IMG/VR virus record: IMGVR_UViG_3300009609_000004
Span: 1 to 62,220 of that record
Reading direction: 5' to 3' (one strand)
DNA length: 62,220 nt
DNA from: a virus
Lineage: Duplodnaviria; Caudoviricetes
Positions 5,301-59,835 of this stretch are shown here, piece by piece. Each line of letters starts with the position of its first letter. Position 1 is the first letter of the stretch. Both the position numbers and the translations under genes were made by a program. Under the pieces are notes generated by a model. That model worked only from the letters and a program-made list of their open reading frames with translations, made no database searches and was not told the origin of the DNA.

Positions 5301-5350
5301 TGTTCCCCGGCCAGTAAGCCGAACAGGTTTCCCCTCACCGCTCCCTCGGT

Positions 5351-5383
5351 AAAGCCCCCGTCGCAAGGCGGGGGTTTCTTTTT
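5351..5383 (+). terminator. Rho-independent terminator after the lysis cassette
   Basis: GCCCCCGTC-GCAA-GGCGGGGGT hairpin followed by TTCTTTTT. Confidence 0.8.
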
Positions 5384-5395
5384 GGAGTCCAAACA

Positions 5396-6394
5396 ATGAA
5401 GAAAACTCTCATCGCGGCATTAATGCTGGCGTTGCTTCCTGTCGCGCTGTTCGCGCAGCAGCCTGTCACCGGGTCGATCACGGCAACCAGTTCGAACTGC
5501 ACGTCGACGGCTTGCGTCATGTGGCAGCTCCCGCAGGGCGGCAATACGACCAACATCGGTACGGTCGCCATGCAGGTCACTGGCACATTCTCGGCCACGC
5601 TGCAGTTCGAGGCGGCGATCGATGGGAACTCGTTAACGCCGACGTTTGTCGCGATCTACGGGTTCCCCATTGGATCGAGTACGCCGGCAACGTCCACTAC
5701 CAGCACCGGTCTCTGGCAGTTCTCAACGGCGGGACTCTCGGTCATACGCGTCCGCGCTTCTGCCTATACGAGCGGCACGGCGGTCGTTTTGATGACTGCA
5801 TCGAATCCCAACTTCGGAGGTGGAGGCGGTGGTGTTGGTGGAGGTGGCGGACCGGTCACGATAGCGGACGGCGCGGACGTTGCAGAAGGCTCGACGACGG
5901 TAGATCGCTGCGCAACTACCGATACGACGACATGCACCCTGGTTGGACTGGCCAAGCAAACGAATTGGTTTCTGGAAAACTCGACAGGTCAAACCACGCT
6001 TGCAGGTTCGAACTCGGTCAATCTGGCTTACCCGACCTTGGCGAGTGGGTTTATCTCCACTGCGATGACCGGAACGACGTCGACCGTCTTTGGCGGTGGG
6101 TTGGCCGCAACTGCGAATAACTACATCTATCTGACGTCCTGCACGACATCAAACTCAAGTCTGACTGTTTCGACGGACATCTTACTTCAGGACGGAAGCG
6201 GCGGAACAACGCTCTATGTTCTGCCTGCTCCAGCTGCAGCAGTGGCGACAACTGGCGGCGGTGGAGGGACGTTTACCTTCCCAATGCCGATCAAGGTTCC
6301 AACCGCAGGCAATGCGCTCTACGCAGCCAATGTAACCTCGGGATCGTCGACGAAGATTTCCTGCTCGGGCTTCAAGTCGACAATTAGCTACTGA
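5396..6394 (+). CDS. Signal-peptide-bearing structural-like protein
   Basis: Leader MKKTLIAALMLALLPVALFAQ; N-domain similar to that of 1246..2742; poly-Gly linker. Confidence 0.7.
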   Translation: MKKTLIAALMLALLPVALFAQQPVTGSITATSSNCTSTACVMWQLPQGGNTTNIGTVAMQVTGTFSATLQFEAAIDGNSLTPTFVAIYGFPIGSSTPATSTTSTGLWQFSTAGLSVIRVRASAYTSGTAVVLMTASNPNFGGGGGGVGGGGGPVTIADGADVAEGSTTVDRCATTDTTTCTLVGLAKQTNWFLENSTGQTTLAGSNSVNLAYPTLASGFISTAMTGTTSTVFGGGLAATANNYIYLTSCTTSNSSLTVSTDILLQDGSGGTTLYVLPAPAAAVATTGGGGGTFTFPMPIKVPTAGNALYAANVTSGSSTKISCSGFKSTISY

Positions 6395-42014: not shown

Positions 42015-43289
42015 TCATATCAGCCCTGCCTTTCTCGCGAGAGTAACGAACGCAAGCGCAGCGCACAGCGGGACCACTGCGTTTCCATAGCTTCTGAGCT
42101 GATCGACGCGGTGATGTCCGCCCAATTGGGATGAAATCCCATCAGCCATCCAACGAAGTTCGGGTTGAGTTTCTTCTTCTTGCCGGTCGTCTGTCGGACC
42201 GCATCCGTCAGCTTCGTCCCCGAATGCCTGCCGCTCTCTGTTGAGTAGGACATCGCGGCGCTCGATGCTGCGTCCTGACTCGTCGCCGTCGGCCACAGCG
42301 GGCGCGAGTTCCGGCCATCGTTCGATGATTTCTCGCCATGCTTCACGGTTTGGTCCCGGTGGAAAGGTTGGAAGATGTGCGTAACGAAGTTCGGGAGCTG
42401 ATCCAGATGTTTCCTGCCCCCCCCCTGTTTCCGTTACGTGCAGGGTTGAGTTGTCGCCCTTGTAATCCCGGTTCGCTGGCGTCGGCCACTGCCCGGCCTC
42501 CCGGTTCAGGTTCCGTCCCTGCGTGCTCTTGTCGTCTACCCCCGGCCGGCGTCCGTCGTGAGCGTTCGGCGTGCTCCAGAATTCCGCCGCGTTCTCCAGT
42601 CCGACTTGCGCCTTGCCGTTCGGTGTCTGACCTTTCGTCGCTACGTATTTCGGGTCGAGCTTCCGGCCTCCGTTCGGAACGTTGAGAGTCGGCCAATCGT
42701 CCACCTGGTGCGACAGGTAAATCTGATCGTGATTCTTCGTGCGATTGCCCAGCTTGGATGGGCGATGGTCGCGATTCTGCGGAGTACGCCAAGATGAACA
42801 CTCGCTCTCGTCGATGGCTCGCGCCGACTTCAGACGCTGAAAACACGCCCCATTCCGCATCGAACCCCATCGCGGAAAGGTCTCCGAGTACTCGTCCCAT
42901 GTTTGCGTTAGTAAGGAGCCCTGGCACGTTCTCCACGAACACGAATCTTGGTCGAGCCTCGCGAATGGCTCTTGCGAACTCAAACCAGAGTCCACTGCGG
43001 TTGCCTTCTTGAATTCCAGCGCGCTTGCCGGCAACAGAGAGGTCTTGGCAAGGGAAGCCTCCGATAATCCCATCGACTCCGCGCCAATCTTCAAAGTTGA
43101 TGGCGCTAACGTCAGAAAAGATAGGAGCGTCATCAAGCGCCCCTTCTTTAATCCGTTTCGCCAGAACTGCGGCTGCATAGATTTCCCTCTCCACGTACAG
43201 AACGCAGCGAGCATCGGCGGCAAGGTGGAGTCCGAGATCAAGCCCCGCGACACCTGTGAAGAGAGAGATGTAGGTAAGTGGAACCACAC
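42015..43289 (-). CDS. Alternative-frame (beta-like) methyltransferase polypeptide; as sequenced it ends in the motif-X tail
   Basis: GTG 43289; FPRWGSMRNG and repeated W(P/S/R)TP motifs; after the G9 tract it reads RVDQLRSYGNAVVP. Confidence 0.65.
   Translation of the reverse strand: MWFHLPTSLSSQVSRGLISDSTLPPMLAAFCTWRGKSMQPQFWRNGLKKGRLMTLLSFLTLAPSTLKIGAESMGLSEASLAKTSLLPASALEFKKATAVDSGLSSQEPFARLDQDSCSWRTCQGSLLTQTWDEYSETFPRWGSMRNGACFQRLKSARAIDESECSSWRTPQNRDHRPSKLGNRTKNHDQIYLSHQVDDWPTLNVPNGGRKLDPKYVATKGQTPNGKAQVGLENAAEFWSTPNAHDGRRPGVDDKSTQGRNLNREAGQWPTPANRDYKGDNSTLHVTETGGGQETSGSAPELRYAHLPTFPPGPNREAWREIIERWPELAPAVADGDESGRSIERRDVLLNRERQAFGDEADGCGPTDDRQEEETQPELRWMADGISSQLGGHHRVDQLRSYGNAVVPLCAALAFVTLARKAGLI
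42343..43287 (-). CDS. C5-cytosine DNA methyltransferase (motifs I-VIII), frameshifted before motif X
   Basis: SLFTGVAG, GGFPCQD, ENVPG and HRRERVF; stop at 42343; motif X lies in another frame. Confidence 0.85.
   Translation of the reverse strand: MVPLTYISLFTGVAGLDLGLHLAADARCVLYVEREIYAAAVLAKRIKEGALDDAPIFSDVSAINFEDWRGVDGIIGGFPCQDLSVAGKRAGIQEGNRSGLWFEFARAIREARPRFVFVENVPGLLTNANMGRVLGDLSAMGFDAEWGVFSASEVGASHRRERVFILAYSAESRPSPIQAGQSHEESRSDLPVAPGGRLADSQRSERRPEARPEIRSDERSDTERQGASRTGERGGILEHAERSRRTPAGGRRQEHAGTEPEPGGRAVADASEPGLQGRQLNPARNGNRGGAGNIWISSRTSLRTSSNLSTGTKP
42417..42425 (-). repeat. G9 homopolymer at the frameshift point
   Basis: CCCCCCCCC on the + strand. Confidence 0.95.
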
Positions 43290-43291
43290 CG

Positions 43292-43666
43292 CTACGCCTT
43301 CCCCAATTTATTTCGCATCCAATCCTTCGCCACATCGACCGACGTCTTCTCGACTCGCCCGCATTCATCCGCCCAACGATCGATCCGTGCGCAGAATATC
43401 GAGAGCGGCGGCTGCTTCTTTTCAAAGCTGTCTCGACGCTTGAGGTAGCAGAGCCAGTACTGCTTCAACTGCTCGATGCCGTATTCGTCGGGGTACGACT
43501 TCGTAGCCTTCAGCATGTCGCGCACGGCTCCGATGTCACGCGGCCGGATGATCAGCGGACTGCCTGTCCCTTCCCGGTAGGTCGTCGCAGCGAAGTCGAG
43601 GAACGGCTGGTGCCGAGGATCCGCCGGCTCGCGCTGCTGCTTAATGCCTGGGAAGAGGGTGGTCAT
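43292..43666 (-). CDS. Hypothetical protein resembling the C-terminal domain of phage replication initiators
   Basis: Start MTTLFPG (ATGA-coupled); pattern resemblance only. Confidence 0.4.
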   Translation of the reverse strand: MTTLFPGIKQQREPADPRHQPFLDFAATTYREGTGSPLIIRPRDIGAVRDMLKATKSYPDEYGIEQLKQYWLCYLKRRDSFEKKQPPLSIFCARIDRWADECGRVEKTSVDVAKDWMRNKLGKA

Positions 43667-43949: not shown

Positions 43950-44297
43950 TCACTGCTTGATTTCTGGGAACGTAGCCACGGTCCGCCATGTCTTGTTATC
44001 TGAACTGCATTGCAATTGGAACGGTCGCTGTCCTTTGAAGACGCGTATCCATCCGCATCCATCAAGCACCGGAGCGCCCCTTTTCGTCGTAGCTTGAACG
44101 GATGCAGTCGTCACTTCGTGAAGCTGCGCGGCGAGCCGCTGTCCTTCCAGTTGAAGTGCGTTATTCATGTCTTTCAGCATCTCGACGTGCCTGTCTTGGA
44201 CTGGCTGCGAGGTCTCGACGAACTGGTATTCGTACACGCTGCGAGTGATCAGCCAGCCGAACAGAAGTCCGAGGGCGGCGCACATGACCGTTTTCAT
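43950..44297 (-). CDS. Membrane-anchored hypothetical protein
   Basis: N-terminal TM; coupled to the SPFH gene. Confidence 0.55.
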   Translation of the reverse strand: MKTVMCAALGLLFGWLITRSVYEYQFVETSQPVQDRHVEMLKDMNNALQLEGQRLAAQLHEVTTASVQATTKRGAPVLDGCGWIRVFKGQRPFQLQCSSDNKTWRTVATFPEIKQ

Positions 44298-45244
44298 GAC
44301 CGCTCCGATGTCGCAAGCAACGAACCTTGAAGCTGTGTGAGCAGGTCCTGTAGGGCGCCGGGGCTATGCGGCATCAATATCGTGTTCGACTTTCCTGTCG
44401 CGCCGATCTCCTTCAGCGTGTCGAAATACTGCGTCAGAAGGACCATCGACATCACTTCCTTGGCCTCGACGCCTGTTGTTTTCTCGAATGCCTGGACCGA
44501 TTCCTGAAGTCCGGCAACAATCGCTTTTCGCTGATTTGCGATACCTTCGCCCTGGAGTTTCTTCGACTCGGCTTCAGCCTCTGCGGCCTTAATCGCGAGA
44601 ATCTTACTCGCCTCACCGCGCGCCTCTGCTGCGATGCGTTCGCGCTGCGACGCAACAATGTCGTTCATTGCAGCCTTGACTCGCCCCTCAGGCTCGACGT
44701 CGGTAACGAGCGCGCCAATAATCTCGTAGCCGAAGTCCCCCATGTCCTGCGACAGTTCCCCCTTTACCTGATTCGCGATCTCGTTTTTCTTTTCGAACGC
44801 CTCGTCGATCAGCATGTGAGGAACCTGCGATCGAACAACGTCGAACACGTAGGCCGATATCTGCGCCTTGGGGTCGTCGAGTTTGTAGAACGCTTTCTCA
44901 GCGTCTATTACCTGATACTGAATCGCGAGGTAGACTTTGACGAACGTGTTGTCCTTCGTCTTCGTTTCCACTTCCAGATCGAGTTGCTGTATCCGCATAT
45001 CCATCGGCTCATCGCGATCACCGTCATCGTCAATGTGGCCGGCCGCGGCGATTTGATCGATGAACGGCACTTTGAAGTTGAGTCCTGGATCGGCAACGCG
45101 AAGGAATCGGCCGAACCGCTGCACGATCTTGCGTGTTCCGGTATCGACGGTGAAGAGAGCGGATGCGAGCGCCGACGCAGCGACACCAGCGAGAAAAACT
45201 GCGACTGCGATAAAGATGATCGTTTCGGTAGTGAGTTCGGGCAT
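44294..45244 (-). CDS. SPFH/band-7 domain membrane protein
   Basis: TM; IVQRFGRF...PGLNFKVPFID...VETKTKDN...YVFDVVRS...LLTQYFDTLKEIG. Confidence 0.93.
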   Translation of the reverse strand: MPELTTETIIFIAVAVFLAGVAASALASALFTVDTGTRKIVQRFGRFLRVADPGLNFKVPFIDQIAAAGHIDDDGDRDEPMDMRIQQLDLEVETKTKDNTFVKVYLAIQYQVIDAEKAFYKLDDPKAQISAYVFDVVRSQVPHMLIDEAFEKKNEIANQVKGELSQDMGDFGYEIIGALVTDVEPEGRVKAAMNDIVASQRERIAAEARGEASKILAIKAAEAEAESKKLQGEGIANQRKAIVAGLQESVQAFEKTTGVEAKEVMSMVLLTQYFDTLKEIGATGKSNTILMPHSPGALQDLLTQLQGSLLATSERS

Positions 45245-45246
45245 GG

Positions 45247-45624
45247 TTAATCGGGCCTCCGTCTATTTGGGTAGTCTCGAAATTCGCTAGCGCACAAGAT
45301 CGCGTCCATCGCCTTCGCGCGGATTCTTTCGTACTTCGGATCGGCTTCCGTGAGGTTTGCTGCGATGGTCAGCGCGTTTTCCGCCCACCCCTTCACGAAT
45401 CGGTCCGCCGTGTCATCTTGAGCTCGCAGCACAAAGATCGGCTCGTCATCTGCGGCTTTCACGATGCAGGGTGAGTCCGTGGTGTTGTTCCTGAGAACGT
45501 GGGTCGCCTCGTCGAGCGCGACGGTAAATCGATCGCCGCCGCCTTCAGGGCAAAGCGACTCCAGAATTGAAACGAGTTTCTTGATCTTGTCCTGAAACTC
45601 GAGCGTGCGTTTTGTGTGGCTCAT
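45247..45624 (-). CDS. Phage hypothetical protein
   Basis: CIVKAADDEPIFVLRAQD motif. Confidence 0.65.
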   Translation of the reverse strand: MSHTKRTLEFQDKIKKLVSILESLCPEGGGDRFTVALDEATHVLRNNTTDSPCIVKAADDEPIFVLRAQDDTADRFVKGWAENALTIAANLTEADPKYERIRAKAMDAILCASEFRDYPNRRRPD

Positions 45625-59681: not shown

Positions 59682-59755
59682 GCCCTCGTAGCTCAGGTGG
59701 AAAGAGCAGTCGGCTTCTAACCGACAGGCCGCAGGTTCGAATCCTGCCAAGGGCT
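59682..59755 (+). tRNA. tRNA-Arg (anticodon TCT)
   Basis: Acceptor GCCCTCG/CAAGGGC (one mismatch), D-arm GCTC/GAGC, anticodon arm GTCGG-CTTCTAA-CCGAC, T-arm GCAGG-TTCGAAT-CCTGC; no encoded CCA. Confidence 0.9.
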
Positions 59756-59835
59756 CTCGCGGAGTTCTCCGCGTTATCGGCCACCGCTTGTGCCGTCAAA
59801 CAGGCGAACCCATCCCACATTCAGGAGTGAATTGA

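Follow-up and report, generated by a model that had tools for sequence, protein, structure and literature searches.

The methyltransferase gene in the window

The window analysed here, 62,220 bases long, is the whole of IMG/VR record IMGVR_UViG_3300009609_000004 (Caudoviricetes), a complete virus record with direct terminal repeats, and our subject is a C5 methyltransferase gene on its minus strand, at 42015-43289. A sequence-only reading of this locus had noted two GTG codons 2 nt apart that open two long overlapping frames, motifs I-VIII in one of them (frame A), FPRWGSMRNG and W-x-T-P repeats in the other (frame B), and a run of nine G residues at 42417-42425, from which the removal of one base would join A to a motif X tail and B to a motif IX tail. 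Each of these features is present: the two starts lie on the minus strand at 43289 and 43287, the named words occur in the translation of frame B, nine G residues are counted in the run, and the frame arithmetic is correct. The upstream minus-strand gene ends at 43292, and the methyltransferase gene opens with GTGTGG. We refer to the chain that carries motifs I-VIII as alpha, and to its counterpart in the overlapping frame as beta. The features of the locus are as follows.

43285..43304, minus strand: putative shared translation start region, from the sequence; the twin-start layout is also seen in relatives
43304-43297, minus strand: purine-rich GGGGAAGG, inside the start region, read directly
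43289-43287, minus strand: GTG of frame B (beta), read directly
43287-43285, minus strand: GTG of frame A (alpha), read directly
42343..43287, minus strand: frame A, a truncated alpha with motifs I-VIII and without motif X (PF00145 and reading)
42712..43275, minus strand: catalytic large-domain core of alpha (PF00145 match, 135.9 bits)
42015..43289, minus strand: frame B, 424 codons, with its stop at 42015-42017
42414..42881, minus strand: small-domain part of beta in frame B, with FPRWGSMRNG, four W-x-T-P units and HVTETGGG (reading and relatives)
42417..42425, minus strand: G9 run, the frame-change site, one base above the in-frame length (reading and relatives)
42020..42433, minus strand: frame C open stretch, the stranded beta tail with GGGRKHLDQLPNFV, LWPTA and motif IX (phrog_1008 positions 183-294)
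42122..42169, minus strand: motif IX-like LNPNFVGWLMGFHPNW in frame C (direct reading and relatives)
42018..42377, minus strand: alpha tail module, now in frame B, with FPPGP..W..I..PELAPA, RVDQLRSYGNAVVP and a C-terminal helix (reading and relatives)

Frame A combines the core motifs of a C5 methyltransferase, namely I (FTGVAGLDLG), IV (GFPCQDLS, with the P-C-Q catalytic cysteine), VI (ENV) and VIII (HRRERVF). The PF00145 profile matches it with E 2.4e-39, residues 5-192 aligning with profile positions 2-183 of 324, that is, with motifs I-VIII only, as had been read from the sequence. The locus does not have the organisation of a single-chain enzyme: the variable region, motif IX and motif X fall in frames B, C and B, respectively, apart from motifs I-VIII. 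Past motif VIII, frame A reads the repeat region out of frame and stops at 42343-42345, 26 codons beyond the G run.

Frame B, which has no match in Pfam, is chimeric: a beta leader, which is motifs I-VIII read in +1, is followed by beta's repeat domain and then by the tail of alpha with motif X. The phrog_1008 profile matches its residues 71-187 (E 2.2e-21), on the exact nucleotides that code motifs IV-VIII in frame A, and later positions of the same profile match frame C. The phase of frame C is that of position 43288, and the earliest start codon inside it is a GTG at 42346. Motif X is RVDQLRSYGNAVVP, with GNAVV at 42086-42072; the start of the NP word precedes GNAVV by 80 nt in the window and by 77 nt in most relatives. 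We take LNPNFVGWLMGFHPNW to be motif IX, from general motif definitions and from the description of the small domain in PMC3404938.

Two open frames among the relatives

A search with the frame B protein yielded 75 proteins, which were aligned. Locus searches that used a single protein as query returned no relatives; smaller alignments used as queries recovered the loci, and 111 were fetched (21 viral contigs, 6 genomes, 80 metagenomes, five annotated phage stretches and one stretch of the window's own record). A motif-pattern scan of 112 sequences, these loci and the window, identified 59 that contain motifs IV/VI along with a IX/X pair. The remaining 53, which are cut contigs or pattern misses, were dropped, and six of the 59 repeat the gene region of another locus.

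A single arrangement, hereafter the standard layout, is found in 54 of the 59 sequences: motifs I-VIII and X lie in frame 0 (alpha), while the W-x-T-P repeats and motif IX lie in frame +1 (beta). The window layout is seen in the other five, namely the window, L037, L038, L052 and L054. In all but one of the 54 standard loci, neither frame contains a stop between motif IV and motif X or IX, over 966-1651 nt; across the same span of these 53 loci, the third frame contains 6-24 stops and the reverse frames contain 2-25. When pieces of the window's three frames were searched by tblastn against the first 27 loci, the standard layout was recovered in 14 of the 14 having all four modules, ten were without one or more modules, and L008, L021 and L027 deviated. 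In most of the 54 standard loci, NP.F..WLMG (frame +1) sits 77 nt before GNGVV (frame 0). Motif IX is encoded in another frame of the alpha gene, on a predicted second chain, as in enzymes of the M.EcoHK31I type. No Pfam domain was detected in the beta-like proteins surveyed (0 of 75, and 0 of 120 listed among 835), hence no single-chain form was seen in these sets.

These counts bear on what had been proposed from the window alone. The two-chain, two-frame layout suggested for this gene appears to be standard among its relatives (54 of 59, 53 with both frames open), and the beta frame, whose absence from homologs had been named as grounds for giving up the proposal, is conserved in both its repeats and motif IX. 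The structural idea was correct and understated. Judged from the sequences compared here, the overlap is a family-wide dual coding of the whole gene from twin starts, which goes beyond what had been recognised in the window; beta holds the entire small domain, rather than motif IX alone, and the split is one of domain against domain, large (alpha) versus small (beta).

A few sequences differ in other ways. In L021 (1560-1990) and L027, a third arrangement is seen: motif IX shares the frame of alpha, motif X has an open reading frame (ORF) of its own, 197 codons long, and the cause is a shift close to the junction at which the window has its G run, where these loci have no long homopolymer. L008 (120-1803) contains five G6-G7 runs and several frame changes within the gene, and is decayed or poorly assembled. 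DNA matches in phage records were short, covered motifs IV-VIII and came from short methyltransferases, in Mycobacterium and Gordonia phages, that are unrelated and not part of this family.

The starts of the two frames are closely paired. Among 47 distinct standard loci, beta begins 2 nt upstream of alpha in 19, 5 nt upstream in 18 and 4 nt downstream in four, and is unclear in six; starts are 2-5 nt apart in 41 of the 47, a count made with start codons chosen by closeness to the expected position, which is a rule favouring close pairs. Independent of that rule are two conserved strings, ATGTGGCT in the 2-nt class and ATGACATGGCT in the 5-nt class, which often follow a GGAGG-like site. As for an internal start of beta, no conserved ATG with a ribosome site was found within 60 codons upstream of the domain in 36 loci; in that stretch, any ATG at all occurs in 19 of the 36, and any start with a Shine-Dalgarno-like string in eight. 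A beta profile searched against 1.84 billion representatives matched 34,158 proteins at E <= 0.001, 17,162 at E <= 1e-10 and 3,099 at E <= 1e-30, and about 122 of the best 150 matches begin at profile position 1-2.

Stops in the +1 frame number 3.1 per 100 codons in the window's long ORFs and 2.2 in the flanks of the loci; the window gene has 0 in 424 codons. In ordinary ORFs, just 49 of 376 blocks of 144 codons are stop-free in that frame. The double openness of the window gene exceeds chance. We also permuted synonymous codons within each gene of 38 sequences, keeping the gene's own, already adapted codon usage. With beta codons permuted in the repeat region, alpha's frame acquires 4.6 stops on average, and the median fraction of permutations with zero stops is 0.002; with the N region permuted, 1.16 stops are expected in beta's frame, and the median zero-stop fraction is 0.20. 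The number observed, in both regions, is zero in 38 of 38 sequences. On the strength of the repeat-region result (4.6 stops expected, none observed), the read-through of alpha to motif X is clearly selected. The open leader of beta is supported, at the level of sequence comparison, by its constancy over many diverged, though related, loci.

Conservation is distributed between the two frames. In the N region, substitutions by alpha codon position are 0.32/0.21/0.48, with the third position highest, and the conserved residues of the beta leader all lie over alpha's motifs: the conserved N-terminal words of the beta alignment are +1 readings of these, WRTSQxSLL from ENVPGLL and S-R-A-R-T from F-P-C-Q-D. 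This points to the leader sequence being a passenger, of which only the openness is kept. In the tail, conserved blocks alternate between the frames (FAPGP..W..P.LAPA in alpha, LNP.F..WLMG.P..W in beta, R..LR..GNGVV in alpha). We consider it very likely that selection maintains both frames across the family.

Annotation already suffers, as gene callers output just one frame of the pair. For Acidovorax phage Alfacinha1, the product annotated as 'cytosine-specific methyltransferase' (gp46) is the beta frame, and a 385-codon alpha frame carries no annotation. The record of Burkholderia phage phi1026b does annotate alpha; its beta frame stays open beyond motif IX, giving an ORF of 706 codons that extends into a ParB-like domain. 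The following records contain this long ORF.

L031:1691-3811 (phi1026b): beta-ParB ORF; the record annotates alpha and a shorter ParB gene only
L113:1191-3311 (phage vB_E253): beta-ParB ORF, annotated whole as 'chromosome partitioning protein', with alpha left out

In the PHROG library, phrog_1008 ('DNA methyltransferase') seems to represent the beta frame, whereas phrog_363 and phrog_29583 are families of the alpha frame, in which the gap between motifs VIII and X is short and long, respectively. The library would thus keep both frames of one gene as separate families. The 17,162 protein clusters that match the beta profile at E <= 1e-10 include none recognisable by Pfam in the samples seen.

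The repeat tract and the shifted alleles

The beta frame of standard-layout relatives contains T-G-G-G-R-K-H-M-D-Q-L unbroken, for example in L009 (G8) and L033 (G6). In the window, TETGGG is read in frame B and GGGRKHLDQLPNFV in frame C, and the G run is where the two overlap. Because the reading that is unbroken in relatives changes from frame B to frame C precisely at the run, the extra base lies inside it. Through this shift, motif X passes from alpha to beta, and motif IX ends up stranded in a third frame. The earlier view that G9 is one base above the in-frame state, with truncated and chimeric products, agrees with the unbroken reading in these relatives, such as that of L009 with its G8.

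Tracts of at least G8 are also found in frame, with G8 in L009, L062, L072, L086 and L101, and G9 in L043, L085 and L092. Out-of-frame loci comprise the window, L037 and L038 (G9), L052 and L054 (G10), L032 (G7), L077 (G11) and L040, which has (ACGG)x7. Almost all loci without a tract are in frame, L021/L027 being an exception. In the window, L037 and L052, the frame of the stranded motif IX opens at most 8 nt from the tract, no other lesion is present in either downstream frame, and a one-base change restores both chains. As in phase-variable genes, a simple repeat lies inside the ORF and its length sets the frame, here at one junction (in-frame lengths G6, G8 and G9). In several lineages, out-of-frame alleles cluster at such tracts, which marks the site as a hot spot of mutation, with shifted alleles that are young or reversible. 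That the tract is an adaptive switch, as in the bet-hedged methylation proposed from the sequence alone, we regard as doubtful.

The tetranucleotide repeat of L040 (2707-2734) occupies the junction where other lineages have poly-G, and the gene is out of frame in the manner of the window; protein P0006 carries a TDGRTDGR repeat that matches it. Selection for the homopolymer itself was considered and set aside as unproven: three glycine codons of beta over an unconstrained alpha linker could yield G8-G9 by chance in a fair share of lineages.

Elsewhere in the window, two long ORFs on the plus strand (5318-6391 and 5353-6117) overlap, and the second of these, of 255 codons, has no stop in its +1 frame; this may reflect chance in G+C-rich DNA or a further dual-coded stretch. 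An antisense pair of ORFs, of 316 and 294 codons, lies at 44294-45244 (minus) and 44366-45250 (plus), the former matching phrog_200 (lipoprotein, E 2.3e-18). A single tRNA-Arg with anticodon TCT is found at 59682-59756 (plus).

A proposed two-chain enzyme, its alternatives and known systems

We propose that the gene is a member of a large family of C5 methyltransferases, found in phages and prophages, whose two chains come from frames that overlap end to end, and that the window carries an allele shifted by an extra G; taken as a whole, this account seems to us reasonably probable. Alpha (frame 0) would comprise motifs I-VIII, an unstructured linker across the repeat region and motif X, and would therefore be the large, catalytic domain. 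Beta (frame +1) would initiate 2-5 nt from alpha's start, at a shared ribosome site, read motifs I-VIII out of frame as a passenger leader, and continue through the W-x-T-P repeat domain and motif IX, serving as the small, DNA-recognising domain. The two chains would then assemble into a single enzyme. That both are made and assembled we think likely. In the window, the poly-G between the repeat domain and motif IX would hold one G too many, such that alpha ends lacking motif X, its motif X tail becomes attached to beta, and motif IX is left in a third frame without a good start. Going by its sequence, the G9 allele is most likely inactive or weak, and a single slippage at the tract, in DNA or in RNA, would restore both chains together. 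More broadly, we slightly favour the view that these genes form a very large unrecognised class, in which an ancestral gene has been re-encoded as two full-length, fully overlapping genes with twin starts at one ribosome site, the folded parts of each lying over disordered passengers of its partner; the chains would correspond to the large and small domains, and in a subclade a tract would rewire both subunits with each slippage.

In a fold model of alpha from L105 (352 residues), the predicted local distance difference test (pLDDT) score exceeds 90 for residues 1-180, falls below 40 for residues 187-291 and is about 90 in the motif X helix; the middle of alpha is predicted to be an unstructured linker. 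The alpha family profile matches M.HhaI with E 1.6e-20, and M.HhaI and M.HaeIII are matched over the N-terminal half. A search of beta against solved structures, by sequence, gave only chance matches to the leader (protein A and MS2 coat). When the L105 alpha was modelled with residues 125-351 of beta, the complex score was 0.85 (runs of 0.90, 0.85 and 0.85) versus 0.00 for the best control; 58 of 80 solved complexes and 2 of 110 mismatched pairs reach that mark, a calibration that holds only roughly for this model, which used our own alignments. The three runs share at least 41% of contacts, with a partner pLDDT of 50-54. Motif X (alpha 327-338) is placed in contact with motif IX (beta 307-322), and alpha 139-147 with beta 135-145; the L105 stretch homologous to the window's 42414..42881 is likewise placed on alpha. 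As far as a model can, the complex score supports binding of alpha to beta.

Several points, the rough calibration and the start-picking rule among them, weigh against the two-chain account. Beta alone folds poorly (mean pLDDT 54.7, predicted template modelling score 0.23). The complex model may have passed by virtue of likeness to solved single-chain C5 methyltransferases, in which case alpha and beta together would resemble one single-chain enzyme and binding would not be implied. Locus by locus, the avoidance of stops in the N region is without significance, its force coming from many mutually related loci, and in the repeat region the substitutions by beta codon position (0.27/0.32/0.40) form a weak pattern. 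Translation of either chain, and of beta's leader of 135-170 residues, is predicted from sequence. The G9 is read from contigs of the probable source sample. Window-like alleles are not rare (5 of the 59 sequences plus several database proteins), and therefore could have a function of their own.

Two other explanations concern the family as a whole. The gene could give rise to one polypeptide, equivalent to the canonical single-chain enzyme, through programmed ribosomal frameshifting at two places, the first shift (+1) following motif VIII and the second (-1) lying between motifs IX and X, with the full-length ORFs being incidental. The order of the modules on the DNA is indeed canonical (I-VIII, variable region, IX, X), and the spacing from NP..LMG to GNGVV is constant at 77 nt in most loci, which resembles the spacing in M.HhaI. 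However, frameshifting would not require openness beyond the part used, and 53 of 54 loci are open end to end with paired starts. In these 53 the zero frame does not close soon after the site, as a programmed frameshift would predict, a comparison in which no search was aimed at slippery sites. The conserved residues of alpha up to motif VIII and those of beta from W-P-x-W-G onward overlap on about 30 codons of DNA, and no single shift point could therefore keep both sets. In phi1026b-like phages, moreover, beta continues beyond motif IX into a ParB-like domain. We judge programmed frameshifting to be quite improbable. It may also be argued that only alpha is real and that the beta frame is a passenger called for its length: beta has neither a Pfam match nor a solved relative by sequence, and the conservation of its leader is wholly accounted for by alpha's motifs. 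Yet such an alpha would be without a recognition domain and without motif IX. The repeat region is conserved in beta (W-x-T-P, motif IX), at a place where alpha is predicted to be disordered; in 53 of 54 loci beta stays open over a stretch longer than 1 kb, one clade has it fused to a ParB-like domain, and the complex model passes its controls. An alpha acting by itself seems to us very unlikely indeed.

The other two alternatives bear on the window allele. The extra G may be a homopolymer error of sequencing or assembly, in which case the phage would truly have G8 and a standard two-frame gene. A nine-base run in a metagenome contig of about 10x depth is error-prone, and the frameshift is the sole lesion in the gene. 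The tract is read from contigs, and a second run with the phage gives no cover over 42257-42613, for which reasons an error in this one assembly could have occurred. Against this, a separate assembly by Logan of the probable source run also has G9, without differences, though these are not independent data; and out-of-frame tracts recur in other lineages, in the separate record pairs L037/L038 (G9) and L052/L054 (G10). We hold an error to be unlikely, though well short of negligible, and the G9 to be probably real. Alternatively, a truncated alpha and a beta-motif X chimera, with or without a separate motif IX piece, might be a second working form of the enzyme. The arrangement recurs in L037/L038, L052/L054, L040 and L032 and, at the protein level, in P0004, P0006, P0008, P0010, P0011, P0019 and P0020; the chimera is open to its end; and split C5 methyltransferases tolerate many break points in fragment complementation (PMC3404938). 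What tells against it is that motif IX has no start of its own (GTG 42346 lies well within the stretch, with no obvious ribosome site), that the alleles are tied to repeat tracts, as slippage products would be, and that the motif IX chain is required for M.EcoHK31I activity (PMC2836561). A working form of this kind has, in our estimation, little probability. We continue to prefer two chains from overlapping frames, with a shifted allele in the window.

Full-text searches, which covered few subscription journals and had REBASE outside their scope, found no description of this family, of the complete overlap or of the twin starts. To our knowledge, very few same-strand overlaps longer than 1 kb are conserved among dozens of diverged phages with double-stranded DNA. 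The overlap is large enough for the study of two proteins that share one sequence, through its alternating conserved blocks and disordered passengers. In phage lambda, Rz and Rz1 are read from overlapping frames of one DNA stretch and act in one complex, Rz1 being short and embedded in Rz. The phage family differs in that both frames are full length and would jointly rebuild one ancestral enzyme; Rz and Rz1 are unrelated to methyltransferases.

In phase-variable mod genes and phasevarions, the reading frame depends on a simple repeat within the coding sequence. The phage family is similar, in that a G6-G11 or ACGG repeat at one site sets the frame. Unlike in phasevarions, one indel alters two proteins, swapping their tails instead of truncating one of them, and the family offers a case in which one repeat tract would control two subunits jointly.

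The closest known case is M.EcoHK31I. According to PMC2836561 and PMC3404938, its beta chain is coded in a different frame inside the alpha gene, with motif IX on beta and motifs I-VIII and X on alpha; the precedent cited by the sequence-only reading, an alpha chain plus a beta chain from an alternative frame that supplies motif IX, is as had been stated. As proposed for the phage family, M.EcoHK31I has two polypeptides that need to associate, with motif IX on a beta from another frame. In these descriptions, however, the alpha of M.EcoHK31I keeps the recognition domain, and its beta is a small internal ORF with internal starts. In the phage family, the middle of alpha has pLDDT below 40 and the repeats are in beta; compared by description, phage-family beta has the whole small domain, an ORF spanning the alpha gene and a start beside that of alpha. 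M.AquI, according to PMC3404938, is likewise a natural two-subunit C5 enzyme, with one cut within the variable region: motifs I-VIII and half of that region are on one subunit, the other half and motifs IX-X on the other, and the genes are consecutive. In the phage family, by contrast, motif X stays with the N-terminal half and the genes overlap completely. The family would thus represent a third natural split of a C5 methyltransferase, large domain versus small, and may be useful for engineered split methyltransferases.

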